64,000 nt of DNA, from positions 14,820,001 through 14,884,000 of the forward strand of contig CM119371.1 of assembly GCA_051294905.1 (NCBI GenBank). The letters are read 5' to 3'. This DNA is from Botryllus schlosseri. Taxonomy: Eukaryota. The translations under genes and the position numbers were made by a program. Under the pieces are notes generated by a model. The model was not told the DNA's origin, searched no databases, and was given only the letters and a program-made list of their open reading frames with translations. Below, in pieces: positions 9,713 through 51,518 of the stretch (the first letter of the stretch is position 1; the number at the start of each line of letters is the position of its first letter).

Positions 9713-9999
9713 TGTAACAGTTACTTTAGACGATTGGAGTCGATTGTAGACTGCTACATTAATGTAAGCCTGCTCAGCGGTCTTGATGCTAACACGTCTC
9801 TTGGCATCTTTATATCAGTCATTAAACGGTTTATGATATTTATTGGAAACGGTTAACAATAATTTAACTCGCTCTAAACGAAAAGAATATAAACAAATTA
9901 AAAGACAATCCTTCGGGAACCACACATTTCCTGGGCCCGACACCGAAAACATGTGCGGGGAAAACCCCAGCACGTGACTGCAGTTATTCACCCGTTACA
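9713..9999 (-). repeat. 5' LTR of the BEL/Pao element
   Basis: Direct repeat of 6997-7283, followed by TSD GCCTA. Confidence 0.95.
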
Positions 10000-26576: not shown

Positions 26577-27778
26577 ATGGAGTCTGAGATGACGATTGTT
26601 TACAAAAAATCCGAACCGCACCAGAGCAATCTGTTGTCACAATTAAAAGCAAATGGGGAGTTTTGCGACGTCACAATTATATGTGGACACGTTGAAGTTA
26701 TGGCGCATAAATGCGTGTTGGCCGCATCCACAGAATATTCTAGGGCAATGTTCTCGAACGACACGTACGAAGCCAACACGGGATCTATTGACTTCTCCTC
26801 GGCAATGACTCCCGAGGTTTTGAGTCAATGCGTCGACTTCATTTATTTGGGGTCTGTGGGGATCTCCAAGCTATTAGCGACAGGCCTGATTGATGCTGCG
26901 GAAATGCTGCAGATGCTGAAACTGTCTGAACTATGCGTCGAATTCCTGGCCGAGAACATTGATCTGACAACGTTCGCTGAAGTGATCAACTTGTCTCGTC
27001 TCTATAACAAGGATGCTTTAAATTGGCCGATATAGACATTTGTTGATGCTAATCTATATGCGCTCATAAAGTCTGCCCGTATCAACTTGCTGGATTCCGA
27101 AATGATGGATTATTGTTTTGATTTGATCGATTTGATGCGGGGTTCGATTCGATCGTCCGAGCTCATAAAATGGGCCGGGCTAGTGGTGTGGACGAACGCA
27201 AATTTCGAAGAAAGAAAAACCCAGTTTCACGATCTATTTCTAAAGATCGCTTTACAACGCATTCCGCGAGAAATCGTTAAAAAGCGAATTTGTACAGTGA
27301 ATCTGATTGATGGCTCGCTGAAATGCCTGCACCATATCCGCAATTACTTCGCAGGCAAGCTACCTCCCGCTGAGAATAGGATCCCACCGATGAGCCACAT
27401 CACGTCGATTAATAAAGCTACGAAAGTGGTTTACCAATACGATTTGTGCAATGAGACGTTGGAAAAAGCCGGTGAACTGCCATCAACTGTTGGCCGGCAT
27501 TGCCAGGCTGTGGAATATCACGGGATACTTTACGTTGGCGACAGTGTTTCTTTGCACGACTTCAACGGGACAGAATGGAGATGTGTAAAGTAATGACAAT
27601 GGGGGAAGACAACGGTAACGACGACGAAGACGAAAGCGACGAAGCGACTGATGTTAAAACTGTTGAACTACGCGTGCTTGAAATCCCCGCGAATGAGGCG
27701 CAACCTACCAAACGCAGTGCTGACGACATGGAGGCGTGCTGCGCGTCGTATGCCAAGTATGTCAAGCTTTCAAATTGA
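26577..27778 (+). pseudogene. Kelch-like (BTB-BACK) pseudogene of the same subfamily as 11910-13490
   Basis: BTB GEFCDVTIICGHVEVMAHKCVLAASTEYSRAMFSNDTYEA. In-frame TAG at 27033-27035; the same frame resumes (27087-27593) with BACK and AVEYHGILYVG...FNGTEW, matching VVEYRGLIYVT...FSGLAW of the intact gene. Truncated where a LINE fragment begins. Confidence 0.88.
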
Positions 27779-27779
27779 C

Positions 27780-30884: not shown

Positions 30885-30960
30885 ATGTTACTGAAGTCAC
30901 ATTTCAATCTCAAGATTTTGTTTTGCGAAGTTTTGGTCGTACTTATTACGGCATCTACAG
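30885..30960 (+). CDS. Receptor-like gene exon 1: signal peptide MLLKSHFNLKILFCEVLVVLITAST(G)
   Basis: ATG at 30885, hydrophobic core, phase-1 donor CAG|GTATGT. Splicing to 35777 gives ...TASTGEA-VSCYVC, the classic signal-exon/LU-exon layout of three-finger genes. Confidence 0.7.
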
Positions 30961-31854
30961 GTATGTAGTTCGAAGTCAAGTTAGGTGGTCGTAAAGCATG
31001 CAGTCCGAGTAGGCCTTAAACCAATGTCTATGTCTATTTCTATGTTTATATGGCCTACAGAGATATATGCTCCATAAATAGATAGGATATTTAGATATAT
31101 CCACACCAAAAATATGTTTATGATCTGGTGCTTTATTGGTGTGCAAATTCTATCCGCGAATTAATTAAATACTTAATGAAGATTGATTCAAATTGTTTTA
31201 ACCGTAAACGAAGTGCCAAGCGATATATAGTAATCTATGCCTACTGGTACCGATATAGACCAGAAAAGCTAGACGATGAGACCTAGCTACGGCCAGAGTT
31301 GGTTAGTTACCAAACGCTTGATTATCGTATTGGATTACTCAAGTGTGCAAGTTGCGACGATTCGAATTTAAAAGTATTCAACGTAGATAAACATATCTTC
31401 AAAATTTCGTCGAGCGTCACGTGAAATCGACGTATCAAGATGAAGGGTATCCCCTGTATAGCACAATTAGGGTTGCATTTAAAACAAACCTGTTTAAATC
31501 AAGGCCCTTGTTTGAAACATGGCTTTTGTTTTTTGTTTTTTTAAGCCATGATTTCACGAATATTCAACTGTGCCGTCATAATGGATTGACAGTGACAATT
31601 GAAAATATAGGGTAAATATCACTCCTTTGACGAAATATCTGTACTATTATGCTGTTGAACCGACTATTTTGAGCGTTCCGACCAGGGCTTTGGAGCAGCC
31701 GTAAATTTGCATTGCTCCAGCTCCGGCTCCCGCTCCGGAGCTTTCCTCCATCATACATTAGCTCCGTCTCCAGCTCCGGGGCCGCATTATTATCACTGCT
31801 CCGGCTCCAGCTCCGGTTCCGGCTCTGAAAACTATCGAAGGTGTCTGTCTATAT

Positions 31855-32556
31855 CAGGGATGGGCAACCCGCGGCCTGCAGGCCATATGTGGCCCGCGAG
31901 AAGGTTTAAGTAGCCCGCGAGCTAATTTCCCATTATATTATCGAAATTCTGTTATATTATCGAAATTGAATTGCTGAGATTGAGAACTTGCAAGGCCAAC
32001 CAAAATATAATTAGTATGGCCGCGACACTTGGGATGTTGATGACTAAAACATCAATTCTGACGCATTGGCAGATCCAGGGTCCAGCAGTCACATTTTTAG
32101 TAAATCGTCGTACATTAGCCTACAATAAACTAAAAAAGTTGTAAAATTTTTCTTTATGCTTCGCGTGTTTAATTGTCACACGATTTCTTTTTCTGTAGCC
32201 TACCCCCACCTGAAAATGAAAAAACGCCTGATTTTGCCGATTGAGTTTAACTATAATCGCAATTACGAGAGAAAGTATTTTCGCGTTTGCAGTCGCAGGA
32301 AGATCGTCGAAGATGAAATGTAGGGACAAAATGATTTTCGTATATTAGCGGAAATCTTCGATATCGATATGTCCAGATGCCGAATAGTCCTGTCCTTGCA
32401 AACTGAGCCCAGCGGGCGGTCACAGTCCATCCGCAATATACCCAAATAATATTATTATTAACTTTGAAAATGTTACGCGCCTGGCGCGGCTAGTGGGCAA
32501 CGCACTCGTTCGTCAATTTCATGTGGCCCTTTAGCCGAAAAGGTTGGCCACCTCTG
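31855..32556. mobile_element. hAT MITE family A (inverted relative to 2439-3144)
   Basis: CAGGGATGGGCAACC ... GGTTGGCCACCTCTG; perfect TSD GTCTATAT. Confidence 0.9.
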
Positions 32557-33616
32557 GTCTATATAGATTACTAATTTACCCTTAGGTTAGTTATCTATGG
32601 TAAATCTAGAGTCTGTCAGCCGTCAGTAACATCGGATGCAGCAATGAAGACATAGGTGCCGCCGTGCCTGATTGTGACGACATAATGAATACTTGTCAAT
32701 TGTCGATAACATCATGGATGCACTAGAACGCACTTTACTCCGTGCCATTGCTGTGTACAGCATTATAATTATGATGCGGCGTTTTAACACTGGCACTGTA
32801 CTCGTTAACATTAAGCCATACAGCTCAATTCAATCTTTAAATGTGCGAGTATTATTCAACTGTAATTGCAGTAATGGCAATATGGGCAGATATACCGACG
32901 TGATCAATAGAAATTCGTTTTGTACCAAATTGCCAATGGTTTGACGTTCGATATTGGTGCACTCGTTACCAGTCCATCCGGTGTCGATCAAATTTATCGG
33001 AATATAATATTTTCCCGTTGAAACGAATCGAATAATCGAATTAAACACAGTACCATGCACATTGCGCCATGCCCATAACGAATTAAACTATGCAGTATGG
33101 ACATTGCACATTTACAAGTTTACGAAACAGATGATTACAAATTGGAAATCGCGTATCAAATCAGTAATTTGTCTCCAACATAAAATACCATGGGGTTTTG
33201 GGCTACTCTTCTGCCATCCCCTATTTACGATCGAAAATCCTTACTGGAGTGAATGACGATGATGCCCAGTAATGAATTGATAAGAGCATGCATAATTGCA
33301 TACTTAATAACACTGTCCAATTTCGCAGCTCGATCACGAAAGAACGAGCATTTGCTCATCCAATTCATAGCAACGATGCGATTGAATTTCTCGACTCGTA
33401 TACTCGCTATATCGACATGTGCAACGAAATCACGTTTTTATCCTTTCTCCCATTTCGTGTAATACATAGTGATGATTATTTTCGAACCGTATACAATTGG
33501 CGAACAAGGTTGTGCTGATGATGAAATTGCGGGTATACCGAATACCCACAATGATCGCAGGCATATTTCGCACACATTTTTTTTAAGAAGGCTTTTGTTT
33601 AAAACACTGTTTAAAA

Positions 33617-35443
33617 CAGTGGTTCTCAACCTTTTCCCCCTCGCGGACCGGTAAAAATCCGCAAAATATTTGGCGGACCGGTGGACCATTAAAAATCATC
33701 CCAAAATGTGCAGTCATGAAACCGTTTTTTGGACTATGGTACCATAGAGAGTGACGTTTTGAGAGTTTTGTTCGTAATTAATATGTTCAGAGTGGTAGGC
33801 TATTCATGTGATTTTACGGTAATTAGTCTGCTGAGTCGAAGAATCATTCTTTTTCCCAGATAAACGTGCTAGCGCCGAAAGTTGATTACTGTCTTTCGCG
33901 CCGAAGGCCGTGAACTAATCGACTACGGCACTACGCCAACTCGAATAATATTCTTCTATTCGCCAAGAAGCGTTTCTGAGTCGGACCAAGCCCAATCTCG
34001 TGCTACCTTGCCTATTTCCCACTACCGCCAGAATGAATGCAATACGCTGCAGAAAAACACCTGGTAACAGCGACATGGGGTCATCCACAAAATGAATGAA
34101 TCGAAAAAATGATCGTGCAAACTGCGCGGTTTAGCGACTCAGTTCGTCCTTATCGGTCGCATGTCGTCACCGGAGACGGCTTAAACTTGCAGTTAAATCA
34201 GGGGTAGGCAATTGGTTTTTAGGCGTGCTAAATAAGAAGCAAAAAATAGGTTTGCGGGCCGGGCCAAAAGTTTAAACTATATTTCGTGGCGTATTTTATT
34301 TCTAAAATGCAAACAGTGAATTACATTGTCGACACAAGCTGTTAGCTAAGTGGATGTGTTAAATTTAGGCTATAAGAGAGTGCGGGTTAATTTACCAAAA
34401 AATATTTCGATTCTTTCAGTGACAATATGCAAAACCATGTAAAGCACGAATCACTCTTAACTAAGTTAAATCACATTTCTCCATACTCTTTTATCTATAG
34501 AGACGTCAAAATGTATTTGGGATGTTACAAGCTGGTCTTGGTCCTGGGCTGTGAGTAGCGTGAAATCCAGCCTCGCTGTTTTGATAGTTTCGCTGGCAAG
34601 TGCTTTGGAATCCGCGCTCTCTCGACCTCAGCCAGTAACGAGTGTTAGTATTTCAGTGCGTTTTTCTCATAACGCCGATTCAGAATATATCTCCACAAAC
34701 TGCTACCTGCTCACCACAAAGAAAATGACTCGTCTCCCACTCATTCGAGTAAACAAATATTTAGTGTTTCAAGACTTTTTAAATGTCAGCCTCCAGCCTC
34801 CACCTCTATTTTTAGCATATGCCTGTTCATCGTTTTGGGTGACCTCTGCTCAGTGCTCACGTGCACTGATTGACTTGTTTTACGGTCTATGGATTGAAAA
34901 CGCACGTCATAACAATATAAATCACAGACCGGGTAATTCGTGATGTAACAATGGCAACACAAGGTTTTGAACTATCTCAAACCGTCACTTTTGACTATAA
35001 TTGTTACGATATACTTTGCTATACAAGCAGTATTTTGAATCCAAATTGTACGACCTATACGTAGGCTGCATAATCACTAATGTACAACACAGATGAAAAA
35101 GCAGGATTTAAAGTAAATGCATTTCCGATTCAGTTTATGTAGCCTTAGGTTTTAGTTCACACATTAGTATTCAAAAGTAGGTTTTATGTTCTAAATTCCA
35201 GGCTACTTTTCTCGGGCCAGTTAGAATCGCGTCACGAGCCGCATTTGGCCCGAGTGCCGTATGCTTTGCCCAGGTCCAAGTTAAATCGAACATGCCAGTG
35301 CTAATCTTACCTCACGAAGTTCTAAATATGTTTAAATTCGTTGTGTTCTTCATTTAATAAATTGAATAAATCAACATTTTGCATCTTGAAATTAAAGTAT
35401 AAAATTTTAAAATACCTCGCGGACCGGCGGTTGAGAACCACTG
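33617..35443. mobile_element. hAT MITE inserted near the right end of 31468-35503
   Basis: CAGTGGTTCTCAACC ... GGTTGAGAACCACTG; perfect TSD GTTTAAAA. Confidence 0.92.
34199..35278. mobile_element. hAT MITE nested in 33617-35443
   Basis: CAGGGGTAGGCAA ... TTTGCCCAGGTCCA imperfect ends; perfect TSD AGTTAAAT (34191-34198, 35279-35286). Confidence 0.8.
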
Positions 35444-35776
35444 GTTTAAAACATGTTTTAAACAAAGTGATTTAAAATACCGTTTGTTTTAAATGCAACC
35501 CTAAACACAATCAAGCAAAGTCATTTTGAAATCGCATCGTATAGCAATTCATAGATTCATTATCAACGAGGGAGCATTTCGACTGGTTGGAGTTTGTGCG
35601 TTGGTATTAGAGCTAGAAGTTCTCGCCAAAACGTACTATTTTACCTGTCCTTTACTTCCACTTGAGTGCTAACGATAACTACTTTCACCACCTCTGTATT
35701 CGCATTATAATTGTATACAACTATAACTATGATCATGTGCGCGCCTTTATATTTAACGTGATAATGTATATTTCAG

Positions 35777-35899
35777 GTGAAGCTGTAAGTTGCTATGTTT
35801 GTACGGCGACGACATTACCCTATTTGTGTTTCCCGATGGAATGCTCGTCTGGCGCTTCTTGTTTCACCCAAGCATGGATTGAAAACGGACAGAGATACT
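35777..35899 (+). CDS. Receptor-like gene exon: N-terminal half of a Ly6/uPAR (LU) domain
   Basis: TTTCAG| acceptor, |GTATGT donor, phase 1-1; (G)EAVSCYVCTATTLPYLCFPMECSSGASCFTQAWIENGQRY has the CxxC...C...C...C pattern. Confidence 0.85.
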
Positions 35900-36165
35900 G
35901 TATGTTCCCTTCTTAATATACCGTTATTTGTAAATCTCAATCAAATCATAGGGATTAACCTATCATATGCAGAATAAGCTAACGATAGAAACTTACATGA
36001 AAACTGCGCAAATATCATTATACTTGGAATATTACCGAATCAGTGCCAACAACATCAAAGGCGAAATTTGTGGGTGAAATTGAAATTATCATCTTTTGCG
36101 ATGCATTTGGTGGATCATCGAAAATTGTTGATGGAATTCTCCTGTTATCGACTAGTACAGTGTAC

Positions 36166-37166
36166 TAGGGATGGTGTGAACGTGAGGTTCACGTTCGCGT
36201 TCTGTGTGTGAACCTCAGAAATTTAGAGGTGCACGTTCACAAACGAACCTCGGTAGGTTCTGGACTGTGAACCTTTTTCATATATTAATATTTCCACTTC
36301 ATTATAACATCTTTGGTTGAAATTTATTGCATTCCAACTGCGGGCCACTCTATGCATGGCGCTTGCAGCATAACAATATCGACACTAAACGAGCATGCAC
36401 TTTGACAATCCCAAATATTTTACTTGCTTTGCTACAACAGTTTGCTCGAAATATCTAGCTTTCCGTTTGTGAATATTTAGTGACTCTCTGCTGTGAGCTT
36501 GACCCGATATGACACAACATCGAGAGCGAAATACACTACATGTAGGTAGTCAGTGAATGATGCTTATTCAACCAATCAATGGAATTGATATTGTTGTCTA
36601 ATTTAGAAAATCTAGCAGGCATGCAGGGCCAGGCTCAATATTGACTTCATATGTTTATTGTATCATAAAAACCAAATCCGTGCAATTGGGGTGTTATGGC
36701 TACTGCTGTATAACTTGTTAATGGGGTGATATCGGCAGCAAGTATAGAAACCCGTTTTACACTCTGCTCAATATCAACGTAGCAATACTCAAACGCCGAA
36801 TGCATTGTCCGGTCTAGCCTATAGACCGTTAAGGCGTAAGCTTATATCCGCTTGCAAGTCCTCGTCGAAATTGTTGGCAAAGCGACGGAAGATATTGATT
36901 TTATGACATTATTGTATCATTTGCTTGCCCCAGTTGATGCGTTTGACGACGTTTAAAACGTCAGCATTGTGTCATTATGTGGCCCGAGTCGTCGCTAGGC
37001 ATCGTGCGCATTAATATAGGCTATCACCTCACTGAAATGTAGGGTTGGAGTTGGCAATATGACGTCACGTGACGTCATGAGGTTCACGTTCGCGTTCACA
37101 CAGAACCTTACAAAAAGGTTCGCGTTCACACGAACCTGAACCTTTCAGAAGTTCACACCATCCCTA
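36166..37166. mobile_element. hAT-type MITE family B (TAGGGATGGTGTGAAC termini, GTTCAC subterminal repeats)
   Basis: TAGGGATGGTGTGAAC ... GTTCACACCATCCCTA; colinear homolog at 48536-50401. TSD is not clean. Confidence 0.85.
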
Positions 37167-38257
37167 ATGAGTGTACGCATATAATACTTTTCTTACTAAA
37201 CTATACCGCCGATCCAGGAGCCAGCGAAACTGTTATATGCAGGTCGCATGGAGAATATAACACTTACAATAAAGTAGAATTCAAATGTATTTGGTCACAT
37301 TCCCGTATCACTTCTGACCCAGAAGGTCCCAGACAGACAGAGAAACCCGAATCACGATTAATTCTAACGTCCGCGTTTACAATTAAATCTTTTGGTTTCC
37401 TCATAACGCATACGCAGAGTTAGCGCCAGTTTACGACTAAAACAAAGGACAACTTTTATTCAGTCTTCATAGTCAGTGTTTGAGCGGTTGAATTCAAACG
37501 ACAAATCTTCGAATTTTTGGCAAAATTTCGTTGTTTGCGAATAAAGGTGTTGCTAGAATATAACCCTATAATGTAATTATTGTGTATACAGGATTGATAA
37601 ATAAAGTATTCAAGCGAAAAGCAAGGTCGTGCATTTTAAGGAAACATATTGGAATCGCGAACCGTTTGAAGGCTTGAATTTGACACTCCTGGACTAAATC
37701 TGCGTTCGCGAAAATGTAGAGCAGATACGGCTATACGAGATTTAGACACTCCAACGATGGAAATACCGTATTGAAACTATATGTTTGTCGTTGACAAAAT
37801 ATTACTCTCTGAAGGCACATATTTTATTACTTTGTATTCCTCTACAGTCTACTCGAGTCGAATCATTACATTTGATACTGAACAAGGATTCGATTACTCG
37901 AACTGTTGTTCCCAGCCCTATCCGTGAATTGACATTCAATATCAAAGCTATACCATATCGCCTATTGCTTAAATCGCCATCCAAATTCTTGCTCTGTGCG
38001 GATAGCTGAGCGAAAATAGCACATATGTTTTTGGCCATACATTAGGCCACAGCCGACCACAGATAGGATGATATTTTTCGTCATTATTCCGACTGGCCCT
38101 CCAACTTTTCAATTGATGATCAAAGTCTGCCGTTGGAAGAATCGGATGTGACATTATCTTTAACGTGTTCGGCGGAGCACATAAATCCATTCGAGCCCAA
38201 TGGGTTATTGCTTTGATGAAGTCCGCCAATTGCGTAATTCTATTTTGATATCTGTAG

Positions 38258-38896
38258 GGTTGAATCACGGGATTCGGCTTTGGTATGGCTGTGTGTAATC
38301 CTGTAAGTGGGGGCTAACATCGATCATTATCTTTTTTCTCGTACCAAAGCAATTCAGAATAGATGGTGCGTTTACAAGAAGTGTATGCGTTCGCGCATTG
38401 AAAACGTGGCTATATGGCAGTCGTTTGGTAACATTCCGTGTCCGTTGAGATAATAAAATACTTATTCACTTACGTGCAACCTTAACATTGGTAGTGTGTA
38501 TGAAAATTATGAATTTTACGAAACAGGAAGTATGGTGGTCGTGGTCGCATAGGGTCGAGGTCGAGGTCGATGTGGCCAACGTACTCAACGTTGCTACTCA
38601 TTAGAAGTCGAAGTATAACGCCATAAATTTCTAGTCCATTGCAATTGAAAGTACCAATTTCAAGGATATGTTATAACAACTTTATGTATAGTAGAGAATG
38701 GAGGTCTCATAGGTCACAACTACTCAAATTAATAGTTTCATAGAGTAGATGTAATCGAGAAGTGGCATAATTTAGCAGTTAATCATGGGTGTCTACTGTC
38801 TACTTCTGGCATTCCCAAATGCAATGTAGCGACGAACGCAAAATGAAAAATGATACTAGAAATAGGTGCAGTTTCCGAAAATAAATTCAGTTACCG
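38258..38896 (+). pseudogene. Decayed LU second-half exons (38258-38302 and ~38776-38896)
   Basis: CTGTAG|GGTTGAATCACGG...TGTAATCCT|GTAAGT reads WLNHG/FGFGMAVCNP with a frameshift. TTTAG|CAGTTAATCATGGGTGT reads VNHGCLLSTSGIPKCNVATNAK*. The sequence after 38896 duplicates the intron after 40386. Confidence 0.5.
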
Positions 38897-40251
38897 TGAT
38901 ACATGGGCTGTTGTTTGTGGTTGTCATGGTGTTTGTCGACTACTATGATCATTTACAGCAGGCCCATATATTCTTTATCATGATTCCGTATCTGACGACT
39001 TGTAGCACGACCCTTGTATAGCGTCTTTTCAAGAGATCGCTTACGCGGATTTGTTGGCGAGGAGGAGTTTCGTCAAAATAAATTATACTCGTTACTGAAC
39101 GACATGTATCTGACCTAAAGCACATGTTTCACACATACAAACATCACACTTTACCCTTGACATATATCACCGTGTTTAGGAGTGTATGTGACTTATTCAT
39201 GCCAACAAAAATTGGTGTGAATGCCACGAGTCGGGCGAGAAGCGCTCCTGATTTGTCTGCATCTTATACTAATGTGGTAATCGTTCGTATAAAGTGATAG
39301 ATTCAGTTCATGCTCAGAACCAGAATTCTTGATTATTTAATATATATATGAATTGTTATCACGTAGTGTAACTGACAGTCGAATGAAGACGGCGCATGTG
39401 AGTTTTCACATATATTATGTGTGGTTTGATAGGAATTGATTATGTGATTCACACTCTGTCGCAGTAATCAGATACATGAATGAGAGAGAAAGCCGCTCAG
39501 ACAACCACACAGCCAGTCTTGCCCAAAGGAAAGGCGCAATCATCAATCTCGAGTCTGGGCTACGCCCATGTTCGAGTTCGCTTCATGCTCAGGCCGCGAA
39601 GTTACGTCTCTTCATCGCGGGGCTCGGATTCGCAATTTAGAACAACCACGATCAAGATACACACTGTAGAAATGATCCCTCTAAGTATGATCTTAGTTTG
39701 ATGAGTCCAGTCGCGCGCACATACTCGAAAAATTATATATAGCTTTAATGGTGAGCAGAGCATCGCATCTCTCTCTCTCTCTCTCTCTACTTTTCTTTGC
39801 TGCCCACATGCGGATCGCTAATTTTAGTCTCCAATCTGGGAGAGAGAGACTGCTCTTGCATACGGTTGGTAATATGAATTTTATCGCCCAACAAGAATTT
39901 CTGCTAAGCGTGTGATTATTAGGCCAAATGTTAGACGAACGGGGTTACCTACGAGATGACACATGACACATGTATATACATTGGCTATTTCGCCCGGTCG
40001 TTATGACGATCTCACAAATAAAGGTGATGCAAAGGTACCCCAAAACTATTTCCTACTTCACAAAATTGAAAGTGTGAGAAATATGTAGTTTTGGTTAACA
40101 ACTGAAACTGTAACCACTTGAGTATTAGTACTGAAAGAAAATAAACCTCTACTTGCGCACTCCGAAAATCAGAATAACTTCGTTATTCGCCTTTGCAGTA
40201 CACTCGTTATGAAATAGTACCAATACTGAATAGCTTTCAACACGTTTCCAG

Positions 40252-40386
40252 ACCAACGCGGGTGCTTCACTCCGAACGAATGGGGAAATTGTGAAACTCT
40301 GTCCAAGTATTTCTGCAGCAACACCAACGCATTCCACTGCTGCAAAGGGGATAATTGCAATAGCGAAGATCCGCTGCTGAACTGGG
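40252..40386 (+). CDS. Receptor-like gene exon: C-terminal half of an LU domain
   Basis: GTTTCCAG| acceptor, G|GTGAGA donor, phase 1-1; QRGCFTPNEWGNCETLSKYFCSNTNAFHCCKGDNCNSEDPLLNW with the hallmark CCxxxxCN. An alternative upstream acceptor at ~40198 is possible. Confidence 0.8.
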
Positions 40387-40984
40387 GTGAGATATTCTTT
40401 GTTTGTTTGTTTCGTGGTATTCATGGTGTTTGTCGACTACTATGGTTATTTACATCAGGCTGATATTCTTCATTATCCGTAACTGCCGACTTGTAGCACA
40501 ACCCACTTATAGGGTTTTTGTGAGACACCGCTTACGCGGATGAGGCGGTGTCTTACAAAAAGGGGTGAGATATTGCGGATTGCACCCATTTAGGTAAAAC
40601 TATATCGCATGCGTGCATGTAGCGTGGCGCGCATCATCTGCGGTTCAAGTTCGCATAAGCACCAAAGTTCCGAAAACTTTTGGTTTGAACAAACATAGAA
40701 GCACTATGACTGATACAAATGCGATTATTTGATATTTTCAGTGACCGGAACTATGATTATCTCTTCTACATAGATAGAAGGTTAAAGTAACGATAAATCA
40801 CCCAAGAGGCAGTGATATGACTAGCAGCGATGTAGGATGATACTAAAGAGCTTCTTGGAGGTGCAGAACTCCAATATACAATTGAATAGTTTATTCATAA
40901 TGAAATGAACCCGTGATGCGCTCGGAGAAAAGCTCACCCTTGAATCATCCCCTGAAACCTGATTCAGAACAGACAAAGGTCATG

Positions 40985-41191
40985 AATTCTGCCATTGGTA
41001 AGCATTTGTTAGATAATCTTGTTTGTGTGAAAGCGTATGCTTGTCGAGACGACAGATTTCGCGTCGTCAGGAGAAGCCGTTCGCACCTTCATTTGTGTGC
41101 CTTGGAGTCGACTTTTTTCAAAATACGCCAGCCAAGTCTGTACCAACAAAAGGAGTTCGTGTACCATCTAAAAATAGTGCATTCAGATTAA
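40985..41191 (+). mobile_element. Penelope-like retroelement fragment (GIY-YIG endonuclease C-terminus)
   Basis: SAIGKHLLDNLVCVKAY...DDRFRVV..SRSHLHLCALESTFFKIRQPSLYQQKEFVYHL matches the PLE GIY-YIG tail pattern (SAIxxHL...LEAxxI....P.L..QKE). Confidence 0.8.
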
Positions 41192-42088
41192 GCACTCTCT
41201 TTGCTATGATTGTTTGATATGTCATACCGGTGACGTAATACTCTGTGATACGATTGTCGCCATACAATGTTCCTTTCAATTCTCTCTACTGGTTGCTGAC
41301 GATTACCCTGACTAGTGCCAGCCGATTATATTCGGATTCATTTCAATATGAATACACTATTGACTATTCAATAGGACGGAACTCTTGTTAAATGCTTTTC
41401 AAAGTAAAAATGACGCTCGAAAACGTATGTGAGTATAAAAGATTTTGCAGCTCGAAGACGTGGTACTGGAAGCAGGCTATGCTATTTTTAGCAATTGCGG
41501 CATTCCGTTAGTCCGGCGTACCGCCGGAGACTCTTAAATTTCACCAAGACTATCGCACTATCGGCACGAATATTACTGTTATATATATAAAGCATTCGAC
41601 GGGGCTATTCTGATGCATTCATCTCTTGCTTGTCTATTGTGATCATGGGGCCAGGCACAGACTCCGGCCGATGAGGATATGTTAAGTTGGAAGTAAGTAA
41701 AACTGGTTGAATTCACTTGCACTGCCAAGACTTTGATCGATATATTGTCCTGTAATATGCAAAACTGTTGTTCAGTCACGTCTGTTCTTATACATATTCG
41801 TTATAACGTCATGACAGTTTTGTTCGACGTGCCCAAACCGCCAATCGTCCCCCACATCTACCCGCAGATTCAATTGCAACATTTGCGATGGGTCTCAGAA
41901 AATCGAAGAAAACGTAATCCCGAGTGAAGTTATGCTTGATACCAACTTTAAGTCACCCAGTACACCGACTATAATGTACGTACACTCGATCCAGCCCAAT
42001 AAGCACTTCGTACCTAACGCTAACTAACGAAATCTCAACTTCTGTGCCGAATTGAAACATCACTATTATGTACTCATCGTTTTAAAAG

Positions 42089-42258
42089 CTCCGAAGATAC
42101 CAACAAACTTGGTGAGCTACGTGACTGATTCATCGGTTGAGCTGTCGTGGGATCCCATTTGCATTGGAGATTATCGTTATGACGTAGAATATGCAAAATT
42201 GCTTGGCGGAACAACTGCAGGCCAAGACCACATAACAGTCGCAGTATACACGAATGCG
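42089..42258 (+). CDS. Receptor-like gene exon: fibronectin type III domain, first half
   Basis: AAAG| acceptor, GCG|GTGAGT donor, phase 1-0; APKIPTNLVSYVTDSSVELSWDPICIGDYRYDVEY (PxNL...T.SS..LSW.P...Y.V.Y). Confidence 0.88.
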
Positions 42259-43065
42259 GTGAGTACTGACTAGGCATATATGTGGATTTGCTACTACGCA
42301 GTTGCGAGAAAGTTATAATAATCACTAAATAAACTAGGAGGAATGGGTCCTACAGTTTTGTAAGAACGGAAGGTGGGCATGACCATTCGAATAGTCGAAT
42401 GGAGTATTAACCGCAACGATTCGAATCGAGTAGCTGGAGTGGATATTTTCCTTTGCCGAAGTTATGACCTTCGGTCTAGGAATTGTTTTGCCGTAATGAC
42501 GCTTATATCGCACCGTGAGACTATATCTGAGCCATTTTAATTCAGTTGTGAATGTGTAACTGCGACTCTCTGATGTAATCGCATAATCGTATTCTTACTT
42601 ACATACAATTGTTCTGGTCTTCTATTACTGCGTGTGACGTCTTAGTTATTCAACTGTTCAACTCGATACTAGGACTGGAGTCAAGAAGAAGGGGGCATTT
42701 CAAAATATATTTCCTACCATCATTCACCATCTGCATCGCCCAGTTGTCATGACAATTTGTCATGCGAAAGCGATACAAATCTATCCATGTACTACGTTCT
42801 ACTATAGACAACACCTAAAAAAGTAATTAGGTTTGCTGCGGAAACTGTCGTTGAAGTAGAAGTGGCAGTAATCCAACACGAAACCGCTTGAGTAAGCTAA
42901 GTATAGAAAAATTGTACAAAACTGTCTTGAGTATTTCGCAAATAGGATTAGGCTACTTCGAAACTGACCATTCCTGAATGTTATGCCTAGTTTCAATCCA
43001 CTAAAGTCAAATATTCGTACGGGACAGAAACACTGCTTTATTGATACAATGCATCTATTTACCAG

Positions 43066-43189
43066 GTCGAGGTTGGTTCGCTGGAATCCGGAACTTCGTA
43101 CCTTTTCCGGGCGAGATCATATCACGGCGGAGTTTTCAGTGAGGCGCAGGCAGTCGAGGCCTCAACACTCGCGACATCAACAACAACAG
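43066..43189 (+). CDS. Receptor-like gene exon: FN3 second half plus Ser/Thr linker
   Basis: TTTACCAG| acceptor, CAG|GT donor, phase 0-1; VEVGSLESGTSYLFRARSYHGGVFSEAQAVEASTLATSTTT (LxxGTxYxFR tyrosine-corner motif). Not in the ORF track in this frame. Confidence 0.88.
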
Positions 43190-43266
43190 GTCTGTGATAT
43201 GTTATAGGGTGAATACATCAAACGAGAAATCATGCTGCAGATGTTTTTTTAAGCATTCGTGTATAG

Positions 43267-43885
43267 CAGTGGTTCTTAACCTTTGTTTCACGGAACACTA
43301 GGGGTTTTGTGGAGGTCAAGACGCACTCTCAACTCATATATATGATTTGTGATGATACGATCGTCTTGGCCATCATTGGTTGCGTGCAATTAGGACTGAT
43401 CAGTAGTCGAATATTGACTGTTGTGGTGGTAGGTCGTGTGCAGTGCGCACGCGGGAAATGTTGGTTTTCGAAACCGAAACCCCGGCCTTCTGAAACGTCA
43501 ATTACATCTATATAAGCATGAATTTAATGACTGGTATTACGCAGTTGCGTATCGGTCGTACAATACGATGACACTATCCAAGGTGTAGCCTATCATTTGT
43601 GAACTGCTGTCTGAATGGAAACAGCAGAAGTCGCACTGATATTAAATAAATATTCATTATAATGTTATATTTAATAATGGTTTCTTCCTTCCAACACTCT
43701 GTTGATTAACCTGATGTACGGTTCATTTTATACATCAGTAATCTATGGTGAGTATATTAGATGTCTGGTTGGATGTGTATTGCGGTAGATTTTTGTTCGT
43801 ATGAATCGCCGAAAATTTGGGGTCCACGAAGGCTTGCAGATTAGAGTAAGTGTTCCGCGGGTTAGTAAAGATTATGAACGTGTGA
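43267..43885. mobile_element. Degenerate hAT MITE
   Basis: Left end CAGTGGTTCTTAACCTT...CACGGAAC; decayed right end GTTCCGCGG...AAAGATTATGAAC. No clear TSD. Confidence 0.5.
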
Positions 43886-44612
43886 TCTAAATACAGAGGG
43901 AGTGCAAGTACTCAGCGATCGTAATCAAATAGAAGTAGAAGCAACGCCTAATTTTTCAACTCCATTACAAGTAGCCATTTCCAAGGCATGTTAACACTAC
44001 TTCAAGTGGGAGTACAATATGATTGGTATTGAAATCCCTAGGGTTTACTTTACACATGTAATAATTACGGAAAGTTTTTGTTGCAGTCAAATCCGTGGAA
44101 AGTTGCGCTTCTTTTTAACAAAAGTTGCATTTATGGGCAGGTTCCTTGAAATTGTCAGGGTATGAGATACCGGAATGGTTACGTATCCAAGACACTGTAG
44201 CAAAAAACTAAATGTTGGCGACATCAACATGATCAAAAGCCTGAAAAAAGTGACCCAGTGAAAATATAATTTTTGGCGGTCTGGCCGGAATGTACGTCAA
44301 ATCAAAAAATACCTCAAATTTAACGACAGTGAATTAATCAAGAGAACTATTTACATTTATTGTCAAATATTTTCCAGTAAAAAGTTAGTTGCATAAAAAA
44401 TTGAACAAAAACTTGCAAAATGTTGCATGAAAAATCGCAAAGAGTTGCAAAAATTTACATGAAAAATCGAAAAAGTTGCAATTTAAGATTCCTCCAAACA
44501 GTATGAAACACCGTACTACACAACTTCTGAGTATTTGAAATCTGCCGGAAGTTGTAACAGAAAGTTGCAAAAGCTGCAAAAATTGCCATTAATAATAAAT
44601 TACATTTTGCAG

Positions 44613-44699
44613 TTAATCGGAGATGGGTACTTTCGAAATTGCAGGTTGCGTCTGCTGTCTGCACGGCTAACGCAAAATCACTAATGACGATACAAATAG
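44613..44699 (+). pseudogene. Frameshifted remnant of an LU first-half exon
   Basis: Reads approximately EMGTFExC/VASAVCTA/RKITNDDTN(R) across frameshifts. Ends AG|GTAGAA in phase 2, exactly what the 45964 exon needs (R-LHSRGC). The 5' part abuts an inverted dispersed repeat. Confidence 0.55.
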
Positions 44700-45963
44700 G
44701 TAGAATCTTTGAAAATATATTCTGTTACCGTGATAGAAATTTATTTCACGCCGTTCTTAAAAGTGATGAAAACCTTTTCCAACAGTACATCTGCTTTTAA
44801 AATCCAAATTATAATAAATTAGCAGTTTTAGCAGAAGCACTTCATGTATGGAGGATACCGATCTGACAACCTGCATTCATACGGATAAGTCAGTAACTCC
44901 TACAATCCGATTCAGGGGCAAAGTGCTGGGTGACCGACAGGTATTTCGAAGCTGAAAATTACTTGAAGACATGTCCTAATTCCGGTGACTGGTGTTTCAC
45001 GCAAGCCGAATACTTCGCGAACACTTCGGAACGGTATTATATATGGTTGGTCGTGTCAGTACTCGATTGACGCAACTATTTTGAAGAGTAAAGTTATTCG
45101 CCTGTGTTGTTTTTCACGACGAAGAGCGAATTGTTGCTCAAGTCGAAGTAGAAGTAACGCCACAAATTTCTACTCAATGACAAGTATATGCTTCGATAAG
45201 ATTAGCAATTTCGAAGACACGCCAAACTTACTTCATGTAGTAAAAAATGATGATCTGAAATGTACTCGAGCACGAATATCTTAAAAGTAGATTTGGTAGC
45301 TGGTTGCATACTTTTAACAGTTAATCGGAATTTTAAGATGTATCTTTCCCTCTATCGTCACCGTCATTTCAATAAAATTTCTATCAAATCAATACACCAC
45401 GATATCGTAATATCAGGAGAAGATAAAGAATTGGTGCCGAAACGACTTGGAGCAGTCTTTCAATCAGACACCCGCATGGCTTACAGCGTGCATAAATAAG
45501 AGGCATGCACACTGTATTTGAGAAAGGATAGAATAAAAGGAATCAAGATGATCAGACACGCTACGAAATTATATTTTGTTACCTAGACACGGCGGCGATG
45601 ACGCCGAGTTACCATGAAAATTCCGTTCGTAAAAGTGATGCAAGCTTATCCTCAAACTAATTTATACTTTATAAAATCCAAAGTGTCGATAGTAAGTAGT
45701 TTTGTCAAAAAAAAACTCTTCGAATAAAAGTGTTAGTAGTCTCAAAGCATAACCAATCGAATATCGAATAAATTAGAAGTAGGCCTACTTTGTTACTGGT
45801 CACCTCTGAGTGGGTTAACCATTCTCATCGGTCATGAAATTAAAACACGAAACACTAAAGACCTACTAGTTAAAACGTCTATACATTGATCACGGGAGAA
45901 ACTATACTAGCTATCCGCAAAACCGAATGGTGAACTATTTCGTAATTTGTTCGACATATTCAG

Positions 45964-46112
45964 GCTTCATTCGAGAGGCTGCATGAGCGAATCTGATTGT
46001 CAGAAATACGTGACATCCAATGATAAGGCTTGCAAGCCTGGAGAGATCGGGGCGGTGTGCCACTTTTGCTGTAAAGGGCAATACTGTAACACAGTCGAGT
46101 GGACCTACTCTG
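45964..46112 (+). CDS. Receptor-like gene exon: C-terminal half of another LU domain
   Basis: ATTCAG| acceptor, G|GTAATT donor, phase 2-1; LHSRGCMSESDCQKYVTSNDKACKPGEIGAVCHFCCKGQYCNTVEWTYS. Its partner exon is damaged, so usage is uncertain. Confidence 0.78.
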
Positions 46113-46203
46113 GTAATTACACTATTTCTGTCCATTGATACCATGAAAAGTATCAGTTGCCACAGCTAATGTGTCTACCTACAATATACATGTTTCCCGA
46201 TAG

Positions 46204-46341
46204 GATTAACCTGCGAAAATATACCCGTCGAGGAACGTATACAATGCGGATGGAGCGATATGCCAATAGCGGCTTGTCTGCAACATGGGTGTTGCTACGT
46301 GCCGTCCAATGATACAACGGCGTGGTGTCATCACGGAAAAT
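46204..46341 (+). CDS. Receptor-like gene exon: trefoil (P-type) domain
   Basis: GATAG| acceptor, T|GTAAGA donor, phase 1-1; LTCENIPVEERIQCGWSDMPIAACLQHGCCYVPSNDTTAWCHHGK fits the six-Cys trefoil pattern C...RxxCG...C...GCCY...WC. Confidence 0.9.
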
Positions 46342-46706
46342 GTAAGATATCATCACATGCACTTCGTTGTAGCCAAGTAGGTTGCCAAAGTATGTACGGG
46401 CGACATCGAATAACAACCGATTTGAATAGGAACGGAATCAGAGGTGATCAGTAACAAAGTACGCCATTTTGGGCGGTACTGGAGTAGGTTTAGGCTGTAC
46501 AGTACATCTGATACTTAATGCTTGAACAACTGCTTCGTGGTAAAAAACTGAAGATTTCTTTCATCAGAATATCCATGGTAATAGTAGGCCTAAATTAATT
46601 ATCACTTGAAGAATTTCCGGGTGAATCTGCTCAAGAGTTATCGCCACAGTAAAGGGATTAAAAAAGATACAAAAGTGGAACCAATATGATACAGTATGAC
46701 GTAACC

Positions 46707-47976
46707 CAGAGGTCTCAAACACGCGGCCCGCCAGACCATTTTGTGCGGCCCGCGACGGCATTTTGGATTTCGAAGTATTCGACAATATTTAACTAACAAT
46801 TTTAGTTAATTCGAGAACTTGAAATTCGCTCTAAAACTACTCTAGAAGCCAGAAACTACTCATCAAACTTCACTATTACATCACTTTCAAAAGTTACGAC
46901 GCAACGGAAGATTACCTATTACGTGACATTACTTGTTCATGATGGTTGAACATGACCCGTTGATGATTCGTACTGGAAATTGTGATTTGGACTTGGCCGC
47001 GACCTTTTGTAGAATTACTCGAATTCAATGGGTGATAAAATAAAAATGACTCGAGTTGAATCGCGTCAAAAGATACAATGAGAGAAGGACTTTTGTGACG
47101 AGGAACGCCGTCACTTGGTACAACCACGGACGAAACAGATTATGAAACTGGTATTGAAAACAGTAAAACATCAAAAGGTCGTGACCTACGTTTCGTCGCT
47201 TATTTAGATATCTAAGAAGGTCGGTATGGCAACCATTGGCATTATGCTACCCTCTTGATGTATAGTTGATTACATCATGCAGTCATCTCGGGTATCTTTA
47301 TCCATGTTATTATCGCTAATTAAATGTGGCAAGTATAAAGTAGTCGTAGCCTACGCTTCACATCTGTAACACAAATGGATTCTTCGGCGATTGAACATTT
47401 CTATTGCTATGGCACAGTAATCGACATATTCAAATTGTTATTGGTCTGTTCGAATATTCGAAGGTAAACCTGACGCTGGTTTAATTTGACTTTGGTAATG
47501 ACATGATCAATATAGCCTAGTTATCAGGAGTATACCCGAGACCTGGATTAGGCTCTACTGCTGCAATGCTCTGATATCAAATCGATATTTCTAAAATTCT
47601 AAAATTCTACCTATATAATTGCGGCTCGTCAAAGGTCCGCTAAGCTGCAAAATTATAACGCGACATGTTTTACGATGTCCTGATGTATTTGTTCTCTCGC
47701 ATGGTGTCTACAACTAATTATTTTGACAAATTATGCCAAGTACAGCAACAATAATTTCATTCAAATATCTAAAAAAATTATTTTTTCGTGACAGGCGTGA
47801 ATTCACAATAGTAAATCACATTTTTACGATGCGTGTGGAATGTCAGTCTGCAAGGTCCCATCAAATCTGGCCTACTTAGAAATACATTGAATTTGCCTAT
47901 TATTAGTGCTGCGGCCCGCGGTGCCATCAAAAAGTAGGAAATTGGCCCACGAGCACCTTTGAGTTTGAGACCTCTG
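46707..47976. mobile_element. hAT MITE
   Basis: CAGAGGTCTCAAAC ... GTTTGAGACCTCTG; perfect TSD ACGTAACC. Confidence 0.92.
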
Positions 47977-48535
47977 ACGTAACCAATAAACTTACAACAA
48001 ATGAAACTCGCATTGTATATATGGCAACGACAGAATTTGAAGTATACCGTGCAATAGTAGCAACGAAAATTGTTAAAACGACAACGGCATATACAAAACA
48101 AAGAAAACTAATGGAATATTTGCAAATTATACAGATACACGTTTCATTCTTAATGACAAACTTCAGTCATTGCTTACGTTAAATGAATTGGTGATACGAC
48201 TGTTGATATTTAACTTTGTGACGAGTTTCAGCCGAAAATATTCGGGTATATTTCACTATAAATGTACTATTATATTTGTAATACCGCCGATTCGGCGTGA
48301 ACTACTTAAGGGGGACGTCGTTATGTGCCGACTGTTGCAAATCAATTACCGGGGTGCCACAAATTAAATAAATCTTATCGACGATAGGGCCCTAGATAGC
48401 ATACGCAGCCTCTTCATGATATTTTCGGATCAATGCTATCACTTCAGAGACGCAAACAGTATCCGAATTGGATCAGGATTTCATCTTATTGAACAGGATT
48501 GCATCCGAACCGCGTAAAACTTGACGCGTTCCTTC

Positions 48536-50401
48536 TAGGAATGGTGTGAACGTGAGGTTCACGTTCGCGTTCTGTGTGTGAACCTCAGAAATTGGAGGTT
48601 CACGTTCACAAACGAACCTTCATAGGTTCTGCACTGTGAACCTTTTTCATATATTACAATTTTAACTTCATTATAACATCTTTGGTTGAAATTTATTGCA
48701 TTTCAACTGCGGGACACTATATATGCAGTTAATGTCGCTGACAGCATAAAAAAAATCAGCACTAAACGAGCATGCACCTTGACAATCCCAATAATTTGCC
48801 TTGCTTTGTTACAAAAGTTTACTCGGATGTTCAGTGACTCTCTGCTGTTAGCTTGACCCGCAATCACACAACATCAAGAGCGAAATACAGTAGCCTACAT
48901 CTATAGGTAGACAGCGAATGATGCTTATTCAACCAATCAACGAAGTTGATACCGTTGTCTGAGGTAAAAAATCTATAAGGCGTACGGGGTTAATCTTGAG
49001 GCGATTGAGGTGTTGGCTACAGCTGTATAACTTGTTGATGGGGTACTGTCGGTAGCAAGTATAGAATCCGGTTGTTCACTCTGCTCAATATCAACGTGGC
49101 AATACTCAGACGCCGAATACATTGTCCGGTCTGGCCTAGACCGTTAAGGCGTAGGCTTATATTCCTTGCAAGTCCTAGTCTAAATTGTTGGTAAAGCGAC
49201 GGAAGATATTGATTTTAAGGGATAATTATATCATTTGATTGTCCCAGTCGATACGTTTGGCGACGTTGAAAACGTCAATATGTAGGGGAGATGTGGTACC
49301 GATGGATCACTGGGACCGAAAATACTTGAAAAATTCTCCATGATAATTCCATGATTACACTCCGTGAATTTGTCTACAATTCCATGCTGGCAGAATCTTT
49401 CCTCACATGCAAAAAAAATCGACCTGCGTGGGTTATGGGGTCTGTGACGACTGATTTACGTTTTAGGGGGTGTAAAGTAAATTTGGATCGACATTTGCAT
49501 TTTTCTATGTCACCTTTCAGACAAACAAACCACCCATAATTTTCAATGTGAAGAGGGCTTGTATCAAGGTATATAATGACACATATTTTTTCAATCAATA
49601 CCATCCTTGCTTGAGTGGACTATTTTCAAGTCAATTTCAATATTTATGGGGTGTGGAACCTATGGCACCATAGCCAAATCAAGCAAAATAGATGTACCAA
49701 CTAATCACTTATCAACATGAACTCGCCTACATATATATAGGCTGTAAATCATAGTTACCTGTGGTATTTTATCGCTATTACGAGGTATTTGAAAGTCATT
49801 GCGGTTTGCGGGTAATATGTATGTGGCATTCATTTTGTAAGTTTGGGCGTGAATGAAAACATGATTTTATGTCAACATTTGAGTTGATCAAATCTATTTT
49901 ATTCTTGAAGGTCGCGACGAAACGTTCTCTATTGGCTTGCTGTAGCTTAGCTTACAGTACACAACAAGTTAACAAATTTGAGTTTTTGAGCGTATGTCTC
50001 ATAGGTCCCCTGGTCGTGTGCCTATGGACCCACCGGGTGGGGACCGATGACACGTTCGAGCAACAAATTTTGAACTTTTATAAACATTTTTGAAAAAGGC
50101 GGATATTCATGTACATGTCCGCGATAGGTCGATCTTGTATCGAAGTGTTGAGACAGCAAAAGATCTGCTATTCTCGGCTGAAGATTTGAGGGCTAGAGAT
50201 CATTTTGCAATTTTTGATCCATCGGTACCACATCTCCCCTACTTCGGTAGGTATCGTGTACATTAGTATTGGCTACCACTTCGCTGAAAGGTAGGCCTAG
50301 GGTTGAATTAGCAATATGACGTCACGAGGTTCACACAGAACCTTTCAAAAAGGTTCGCGTTCACACGAACCTGAACCTTTCAGAAGTTCACACCATCCCT
50401 A
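48536..50401. mobile_element. hAT MITE family B, second copy, interrupted by 49285-50239
   Basis: TAGGAATGGTGTGAAC ... GTTCACACCATCCCTA; TSD GTTCCTTC/GTTCCTCC; colinear with 36166-37166. Confidence 0.88.
49285..50239. mobile_element. TA-targeting MITE family C (GGGGAGATGTGGTACC termini; probably pogo/Tc1-mariner-related)
   Basis: GGGGAGATGTGGTACCGATGGATC ... GATCCATCGGTACCACATCTCCCC perfect 24-bp TIR flanked by TA; absent from the family B copy at 36166. Confidence 0.9.
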
Positions 50402-50449
50402 GTTCCTCCCTATTGACCACATGATGTCAAACTTATTGTTTCAATGCAG

Positions 50450-50613
50450 ATCCTGCTGCACCGGCGATCGCTCAGGCACAGTCTCTCAGCGCGTGGGTGA
50501 TTGTGTTGATAGTGCTATTTATCCTATTTCTGATCATTATCGTCGCCATTATCGTATACTGTTGCCGGAAAAGACAAAGAGAGAAACAGAAAGGGTCGTA
50601 TGACGTTTACGCG
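50450..50613 (+). CDS. Receptor-like gene exon: transmembrane helix and juxtamembrane region
   Basis: TGCAG| acceptor, GCG|GTAAGT donor, phase 1-0; PAAPAIAQAQSLSAWVIVLIVLFILFLIIIVAIIVYCCRKRQREKQKGSYDVYA (hydrophobic run followed by a basic stop-transfer). Confidence 0.9.
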
Positions 50614-50669
50614 GTAAGTATAACGATGCTAGTATTTCCATACGTTCCACAGCTGCGACACCAATGGCT

Positions 50670-51068
50670 TGCGGGTTCGAGTCCGGCTGAGGTCGACTCC
50701 AGAATCCCTATATCCGACTCCAATCTCGCCATTGCGGGCCGAACTATGGTGTGCTATCGTATGTTAACTATCGTATGCCATGACAATGGATTATGTGAAC
50801 TGTGCACACAGCCGGAATCAGTGGAACGTTTCCTGCTAAAATATCCGAGATGCTCAACTAACAGACAATATATCATCGAAGCTGCAAGGAACCAAGGCGG
50901 AAACATTGTGTTATAGGAAATTCTTACTAGCCTTTTCGCTGCAACGCTTATTATAGAATTCGCACACCTGTCGAATCGAGAAAAGTCTTGTTCTCTAATC
51001 AAACTTTCGATTTCGTGCACAAAGCCACAGTAGCCGAGCATCAATAAAAACCATACCAACCAACCAAC
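50670..51068 (+). mobile_element. Retroposon relic: B-box-like head plus LINE 3' fragment with (AACC)n tail
   Basis: GGTTCGAGTCC at ~50674; GLCELCTQPESVERFLLKYP resembles the CCHC tail of the 27780 LINE; ends AATAAAAACCATACCAACCAACCAACC. Confidence 0.5.
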
Positions 51069-51437
51069 CCTAGGTAACTCAAATGTCTTCCAAGATATTC
51101 GCTATATCTTTGTACTGTATGCTAGGCTATCCCTGGTGTCATTAGACATTTTGAGTCGCGAATGTATAGTACATCACAGCCACCTCCGATTAACGGAAAA
51201 GAGTTTGCCGCACTTCGACAAAATCTACTGTTTGCAACTACTCACTTAAGTTCTTTTAATACCATTCACCTCTACTTCCAATTGATGTTGCTTAAACATT
51301 AAATATTTTAAAATTGCTACTTTTATTTCTACTTCAGTAGCAAGACTGAAAACTTTGACCGCTTCTGATTATTACACTAGGGCTGCGTATACTGAATTGT
51401 AAGTGCATGGTTGCTAACGATTTGCCTTCCATTCCAG

Positions 51438-51518
51438 ATCCCAAAATCTCGACGCGAAAGAGGACAGAATATTTCAACTGTATCGAGAGAATCTTACGAC
51501 AACATGGTCATCGATTGA
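51438..51518 (+). CDS. Receptor-like gene last exon: cytoplasmic tail IPKSRRERGQNISTVSRESYDNMVID*
   Basis: Strong acceptor GCTAAC...TTTGCCTTCCATTCCAG|; phase 0 matches the TM exon; open to TGA at 51516-51518. Confidence 0.75.
   Translation: MPKSRRERGQNISTVSRESYDNMVID

Follow-up and report, generated by a model that had tools for sequence, protein, structure and literature searches.

The gene described here occupies positions 30885 to 51518 of a 64,000-nucleotide (nt) stretch of the Botryllus schlosseri genome (GCA_051294905.1, contig CM119371.1, positions 14,820,001 to 14,884,000, forward strand; the whole stretch is called the window below, and positions are counted from its first letter unless they are given for contig C1, on which it lies). 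It is an intact gene of ten coding exons (1278 nt; Table 1), and its product of 425 amino acids (aa) comprises, in order, a signal peptide, a first, predicted three-finger domain of the Ly6/uPAR type (LU1), a fibronectin type III domain (FN3), a short Ser/Thr linker, a second LU domain (LU2), a trefoil domain, a stalk, a transmembrane (TM) helix, and a cytoplasmic tail of 44 residues. The product appears to represent an unstudied family of ascidian receptors, a variant of the multi-domain Ly6/uPAR proteins with an architecture not found in print.

Gene model and orthology

A first-pass annotation of the window, made from the sequence alone, had proposed eight GT-AG exons with compatible phases for this gene, and all eight were recovered at the same coordinates (AG/GT ends, compatible phases, a sum of 1011 nt, and an open frame of 336 aa), but they make up an incomplete gene. 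What had been set aside as an extra LU half-exon in front of the trefoil exon is real (exon 7; 149 nt, phase 2 to 1) and not stray: because it begins in phase 2 it requires a partner exon, and a 118-nt exon in the intron upstream of it, which had been missed (exon 6; phase 1 to 2), fits and completes LU2. Skipping exons 6 and 7 together keeps the frame, and so the 336-aa form is possible as a splice variant, which was shown by no RNA read. The window copy retains an open frame, with every cysteine and all 18 splice sites intact. The analysis also upheld the earlier view of a single gene for a single-pass type I protein built of phase 1-1 modules, in that phase 1 introns flank all four modules, an arrangement that would fit assembly by exon shuffling.

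A profile of exon 4, built from five copies of the gene, was searched against 1.84 billion representatives and gave 97 hits, of which three (P0001, P0027 and P0079) were retrieved and the other 94 were assessed only from their length and their count of stretches. P0027, a 431-aa protein matched once, at residues 107-146, is XP_039261472.2 of Styela clava, which RefSeq lists as 'uncharacterized protein LOC120337675' (431 aa in version.2, 455 aa in version.1). The ten-exon protein aligns with it over the full length (212/425 identical), with the exons in order, LU2 complete, and the same architecture; gap positions on the Botryllus side number 15, versus 105 for the eight-exon protein (167/336 identical). 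Pfam assigns to the Styela protein a trefoil domain (E 1.6e-10) and an fn3 domain (E 1.6e-7), both over the cut-off, and CD59 at residues 7-104 (E 6.3e-5), under the cut-off. In the reverse search, the best matches of the Styela protein in the Botryllus genome were the receptor copies on C1. Full-length alignment and reverse search together identify LOC120337675 as the orthologue.

The trefoil is the most conserved domain between the two species (34/45 identical) and FN3 the least (33/91), with LU1 (41/77), LU2 (43/82) and the tail (27/44) between them; the linkers after the LU domains are identical at 7/8 and 5/7 positions. All 28 ectodomain cysteines are kept in both species (11 in LU1 and one in FN3 in each), as are the domain order, both NxS/T sequons of the ectodomain, a juxtamembrane cysteine pair (CC), and the tail motif KGSYDVYA-x-PK, whereas the Ser/Thr linker of the Styela protein is longer and its second tail tyrosine lies in YDRT, not YDNM. 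Word-based searches with the Styela protein (6315 candidates) and with the alignment (8000 candidates scored) returned the Styela protein alone; both need shared 5-residue words, and are therefore weak evidence of absence of further relatives. A word-based search with exon 7 among longer proteins gave no candidate, and an ESM look-up of the whole protein gave FN3 clusters only, at 0.81 or less.

Table 1. Coding exons of the receptor gene and the BTB(-Kelch) copy upstream of it
Feature	Position	Strand	Phase	Predicted content	Comparison and support
Exon 1	30885..30960	+	ends in 1	ATG, hydrophobic signal peptide	Hydropathy windows >1.6 from residue 5; also found in copy C, and in copy D without the ATG
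Exon 2	35777..35899	+	1-1	First half of LU1, 5 Cys	24/41 identical to Styela
Exon 3	40252..40386	+	1-1	Second half of LU1, 6 Cys, CCxxxxCN, conserved DPLLNW linker	24/45 identical to Styela
Exon 4	42089..42258	+	1-0	First half of FN3, one conserved Cys (WDPxCIGDY)	Pfam fn3 E 0.044; exon-shaped RNA depth in 2/4 runs
Exon 5	43066..43189	+	0-1	Second half of FN3, short Ser/Thr linker	Joined to exon 4 in 2 reads (run X5)
Exon 6	44916..45033	+	1-2	First half of LU2, variable codon 215	Length and splice sites same in 4/4 other copies; 18/40 identical to Styela
Exon 7	45964..46112	+	2-1	Second half of LU2	29/49 identical to Styela; RNA depth in 2/4 runs
Exon 8	46204..46341	+	1-1	Trefoil (P-type), conserved N-glycosylation sequon NDT	Pfam Trefoil E 7.9e-11; 34/45 identical to Styela
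Exon 9	50450..50613	+	1-0	Stalk, TM helix, juxtamembrane CC, basic stretch, tail start (KGSYDVYA)	Hydropathy peak at residue 362
Exon 10	51438..51518	+		Tail remainder (completes YAIP; YDNM), stop codon	13/26 identical to Styela
Upstream intronless BTB(-Kelch) copy	26574..27593	+		In-frame stop	Pfam BTB E 3.5e-21; duplicated along with the receptor gene

Copies, constraint and expression

Five near-complete copies of the gene lie on C1 between 14.71 and 15.79 Mb, with 91-98% identity in exon 4. Ten exons with an open frame are found in two of them, the window copy and copy C (at 15.66-15.69 Mb), and the other three are broken: exons 1-2 of copy A are absent from the 33 kb upstream and its exon 9 has a 3.7-kb insert; in copy B exons 1-2 are gone, exon 3 is partial, and exon 8 is without its start; and in copy D the ATG is lost, a deletion has removed 5 nt of exon 8, and long inserts are present. 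Two relics are also present on C1, consisting of exons 1-2 alone (15033199-15036324, forward strand) and a lone exon 6 (15209286-15209408, reverse strand).

The substitutions among the copies indicate purifying selection on the gene, beyond chance. Between the window copy and copy C, which are 96.1% identical in exons and 91.7% in alignable introns, the ratio of non-synonymous to synonymous divergence (dN/dS) is 0.19 (26 synonymous and 19 non-synonymous differences; Fisher p 7.5e-8), and all ten pairs of copies have dN/dS of 0.10-0.43. The two LU2 exons are as constrained as the others: across five copies, the proportions of non-synonymous (pN) and synonymous (pS) differences are 0.016 versus 0.123 in exon 6 and 0.017 versus 0.104 in exon 7. 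Exon 10 is the exception among the exons (pN 0.042, pS 0.028), with few sites. Codon 215, in the LU2 part encoded by exon 6, specifies V, V, K, E and N in the five copies, i.e., four residues, against an expectation of 0.06 codons with three or more changes in a total of 186, and it is also among the seven differences between the two Styela records; this variability is a lead for further study and no test of selection.

The surrounding region is an array of Kelch genes, in which a scan of 864 kb (outside C1 15284001-15310000 and 15380001-15640000) gave 54 BTB hits. The Kelch block upstream of the receptor gene is common to copies B, C and D, and the in-frame stop of the window's BTB(-Kelch) copy is absent from their aligned stretch. 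Since the duplicated block includes a BTB-Kelch gene, the simplest reading is that the receptor gene was copied as a passenger, and the additional receptor copies probably arose when parts of the BTB-Kelch array around them were duplicated. At copy B (C1:15343862-15344018, reverse strand), a deletion has fused the upstream Kelch gene with exon 3 at its middle, and a nearby AG would put a candidate Kelch-derived stretch in frame with the remainder of the receptor.

Elsewhere in the genome, at least 50 matches to the trefoil domain were found, on C2, C5, C6, C8-C11 and C13-C16, several of them in tandem runs on C5, C9 and C13. The surroundings of the other 46 trefoil hits (33 ten-kb stretches, plus three around weak TM hits) contained only trefoil matches and no similar LU exon; two matches to a CCxxxCN pattern in these 36 stretches were without LU similarity. 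A genome search with the exon for the TM helix and tail found the five copies and three weak hydrophobic matches, and no tail common to other receptors.

Of 21 raw-read RNA runs available under the species label, six were used in the alignments. Four bulk RNA runs from two studies were aligned over positions 41950-46480. In runs X10 and X5, depth was found in the bins of exon 4 (8.6 and 1.4, versus 0.15 and 0.07 in the adjoining bin), exon 7 (3.8 and 1.7) and exon 8 (1.1 and 3.2), and the exon 4-5 junction was spanned by two reads of X5, under the listing mark of three. The reads informative as to copy have T at 42117 (8/8 in X10 and 2/2 in X5) and A at 43066, the first base of exon 5 (2/2). 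In a 19.9-kb alignment of four runs intronic repeats dominate, and no exon-exon joint was present among the 15 of 29 joints listed. At 46025, all eight X10 reads have G for A, which would place Glu for Lys in LU2; this base is absent from every copy in the assembly, and therefore further alleles or copies exist. Many RNA reads on the repeats at 36156-37483, 40804-41467, 48108-49435 and 52756-53400 (intronic and downstream) continue into unlike sequence, i.e., these repeats are transcribed elsewhere.

Other elements of the window include two more intronless BTB-BACK(-Kelch) genes (11907-13490 and 60785-62419, both on the forward strand, like the copy in Table 1) of an array that spans C1 14.68-15.83 Mb. 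A 704-codon open frame at 7700-9814 on the reverse strand, with a DUF1759 match (E 2.4e-9) and a 51-bp tandem repeat at 9413-9685, is presumably of the kind typical of BEL/Pao retrotransposon gag. The segments 27724-28389 (forward strand) and 56433-56912 (reverse strand) resemble ends of retrotransposons without long terminal repeats, the first with a weak RNase H match (E 4.1e-5) and the second with no Pfam hit.

Possible function and its alternatives

The LU domains of the predicted protein (LU1 with 77 aa and 11 cysteines, LU2 with 82 aa and 10 cysteines), which fall within the 60-90 residues usual for such domains, resemble those of Ly6/uPAR proteins in being cysteine-rich, in ending with CCxxxxCN, and in being encoded by two exons each between phase 1 introns. 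Classical Ly6 proteins, by definition, consist of LU only and are secreted or anchored by glycosylphosphatidylinositol, whereas FN3, trefoil, TM helix and tail are present here; TM-anchored LU proteins are known, and BAMBI is cited as an LU plus TM protein (PMC13719153). In LU2 the cysteine pair of finger 1 is absent, and finger 3 carries an additional pair. When LU1 and LU2 were compared as internal duplicates, their score was reached by 0 of 1000 shuffles for the window protein and by 26 of 1000 for the Styela protein. The top rows of Foldseek searches were mostly three-finger folds, none at E 0.001, and the ESM leads were below 0.9. The single hydrophobic helix has a Kyte-Doolittle peak of 3.97, and a helix at residues 358-400 is the sole confident part of a model of the Styela protein. 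Compared with LU2, LU1 is missing one partner cysteine in finger 3, and the FN3 cysteine is located in the loop just after the WDP motif, which faces the preceding domain. The most economical reading of these cysteines is that the spare one of LU1 and the single one of FN3 form an inter-domain disulfide, the alternative being an inter-chain bond; as a two-chain model, LU1 and FN3 scored 0.04.

The tail has no catalytic domain, and neither the window copy nor the Styela protein has an immunoreceptor tyrosine-based inhibitory motif (ITIM), a hemi-immunoreceptor tyrosine-based activation motif (hemITAM), or an [E/D]VYxx[ILV] core. Both species retain the juxtamembrane CC, which may be palmitoylated, as well as KGSYDVYA-x-PK and a further tyrosine; of the tyrosine motifs scored, YxxP alone was found in both tails. 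YxxP is a site of phosphorylation by Abl and a dock for the SH2 domain of Crk. We give about an even chance to the reading that the protein is an orphan co-receptor or adhesion receptor, kinase-less and single-pass, with an ectodomain that binds a protein partner and a YDVYAxP motif that signals to SH2 adaptors. Two composite heads, in one of which the LU1-FN3 disulfide would lock both domains into a rigid unit, would bind the partner on another cell or in the matrix; clustering would bring the tail to a cytoplasmic tyrosine kinase (Abl- or Src-type phosphorylation of YxxP); and phosphorylated YDVYAxP would recruit an SH2 adaptor (Crk- or Nck-type docking, going by general motif preferences). 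The ligand, kinase and adaptor in this scheme are presumptive, as opposed to the gene, domains, orthology and constraint documented above.

Several observations weigh against this picture. LU2 has no Pfam hit, whether from the window exons or from the Styela protein, and its fold is suggested by cysteine spacing together with weak leads. AlphaFold2, alone and with an eight-row alignment, gave models with mean confidence (pLDDT) of 41.7 and 39.6, which are unreliable and leave the ectodomain unusable. In the tail, copy B has YGIL in place of YAIP, and YDNM is not conserved in Styela, for which reason it was dropped as a candidate for the main signal. Runs X11 and X8 have no depth on exons 4, 7 and 8, the main bin of exon 6 has none in any of the four runs, and exon 5 has none in X10. 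Junction-spanning reads, proposed in the first-pass annotation as a check of the gene, were thus obtained for the exon 4-5 junction, whereas those of exon 6 went unseen in the four runs, and the bases read at 42117 and 43066 are those of copies A-D, not of the window copy. The reads therefore point, weakly, to low expression of the family as a whole rather than of the window copy.

An alternative would be a kinase-less co-receptor or decoy for TGF-beta/BMP ligands, in the manner of BAMBI, with LU2 binding ligand or receptor and tuning the signal. The cysteine spacing of LU2 does resemble that of activin type II receptor ectodomains; the results of an ESM look-up of LU2 include a cluster of TGF-beta receptor II ectodomains (0.81) and Activin_recp (0.78), the second-ranked Foldseek match is a receptor chain of the GDF11-ActRIIB-ALK5 complex (E 0.42), and BAMBI and the TGF-beta receptors likewise combine an LU-type ectodomain with one TM helix. 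All of these leads are under the tools' own marks, however, and the same lists include Lynx2, Lypd6, SLURP1, mollusc LU proteins and snake three-finger folds; Pfam Activin_recp had no match to the Styela protein at E 0.1. With four ectodomain modules, no kinase, and conserved tail tyrosines, the protein differs from BAMBI and the TGF-beta receptors, and a BAMBI-like function, which would leave FN3, the trefoil and the tyrosines unexplained, is unlikely. A mucosal lectin is a further possibility, since the trefoil, with six cysteines as in TFF1-3, is the best conserved domain and keeps the sugar-stacking Trp before its last cysteine (AWC aligned to PWC of TFF3), and other trefoil domains bind other sugars (PMC7221086). 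Lectins of the TFF type recognise alpha-GlcNAc, in GlcNAc-alpha-1,4-Gal. TFF3 binds its disaccharide through Asp20 and Trp47, binding being removed or nearly so if either is mutated, and loss of the Asp/Asn clamp nearly abolishes binding in both TFF1 and TFF3 (PMC7221086). Before the second cysteine, where TFF3 has Asp20, the window copy has Gln, copy A has His and Styela has Leu, which makes mucin binding of the TFF type unlikely; moreover, a conserved N-glycosylation sequon lies five residues ahead of the Trp, and the trefoil is single and in a membrane protein, whereas TFFs act as divalent lectins (PMC7221086). The strong conservation of the trefoil implies another ligand, and a lectin role seems distinctly improbable. 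The proposal of the first-pass annotation that this might be a mucosal-immune receptor, and with it a mucosal glycan-binding role, is weakened, given the loss of Asp20, the tail without ITIM, hemITAM or the core motif of the Botryllus fester co-receptors (FcoR), and copies that show conservation instead of diversification.

An innate immune or self/non-self receptor under birth-and-death evolution, like the FcoR, would account for five copies and two relics in 1.1 Mb, three of the copies broken, and for the four residues at codon 215, a site that also differs between the Styela records. YDNM would be a PI3K/Grb2-type motif. The FcoR are also ascidian type I membrane proteins with gene clusters and tyrosine motifs, and the DVYAI of the tail resembles the DDVYAIL of FcoR4 (PMC11507803), while DVYGIL of the broken copy B fits the FcoR core. 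Against this, the FcoR are described as 520-610 aa long and as built of IgV, sushi and two C2 Ig domains (PMC12065747), none of which this protein has, and their tails as carrying an ITIM or hemITAM (PMC11507803), which the intact copy and Styela lack together with the core motif. Membership in the FcoR was rejected on the basis of the length of 425 aa, the lack of a match, at E 0.1, between the Styela orthologue and any Ig or sushi family, and the absence of FcoR tail motifs. Furthermore, the copies are 91-98% identical under purifying selection, whereas members of the fester family average 20% (PMC11507803), and the duplications take in the neighbouring Kelch gene; an immune role has little probability. 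Compatible with any of these functions, there is also a small chance that the window copy is a recent silent duplicate heading to decay: three of five copies are broken, every informative read at 42117 and 43066 carries the base of the other copies, and the low dN/dS may be inherited from diverged alleles that predate the duplication. The window copy is nonetheless intact in frame, splice sites and cysteines, and the RNA runs need not derive from the sequenced individual, so that the other bases may be alleles.

Architecture and significance

No paper describing the LU-FN3-LU-trefoil-TM combination was found in a literature search that mostly excluded subscription papers, and the identifiers LOC120337675 and XP_039261472 appeared in no paper searched. 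For 387 invertebrate genomes, with no tunicate among them, a 2026 survey of LU proteins reports LU combined with kinase, 7TM, Kunitz, C1q, fibrinogen, Ig, MAM, thioredoxin, permease and other domains (PMC13719153); its text and legends name neither FN3 nor trefoil with LU, and its figures and supplements may list more architectures. Fibronectin and trefoil are not mentioned in the available text of a starfish LU study (PMC11595613), nor trefoil, Ly6 or uPAR in that of a review of tunicate immunity (PMC5465252). The combination of LU, FN3, trefoil and TM, which the first-pass annotation did not recognise, is thus new to the papers found; its actual order is LU-FN3-LU-trefoil, and it was already in RefSeq as an uncharacterized Styela gene.

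As a gene discovery the finding has lesser weight, the orthologue having been predicted in RefSeq; what is added here is an intact copy, the second LU domain, a test of selection, a clue to cysteine pairing, and the lost sugar clamp. The four modules are familiar binding units, and the latest survey of invertebrate three-finger proteins omitted tunicates. Two structural questions are raised, namely a possible disulfide that would staple LU to FN3, and a trefoil in which the clamp for the mucin sugar is missing. In the boldest version, to which we assign a low probability, the protein would belong to an undescribed class of ascidian recognition receptors, in which a disulfide-stapled LU-FN3 head is followed by an LU2 that bears a single hypervariable finger site and packs on a trefoil converted from binding sugar to binding protein, with a Crk-type tyrosine relay in the tail; if true, variable cell recognition would have been reached without Ig domains in the sister group of the vertebrates. 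Short of that, the intact and conserved copy provides a defined orphan receptor that may be tested in ascidians.

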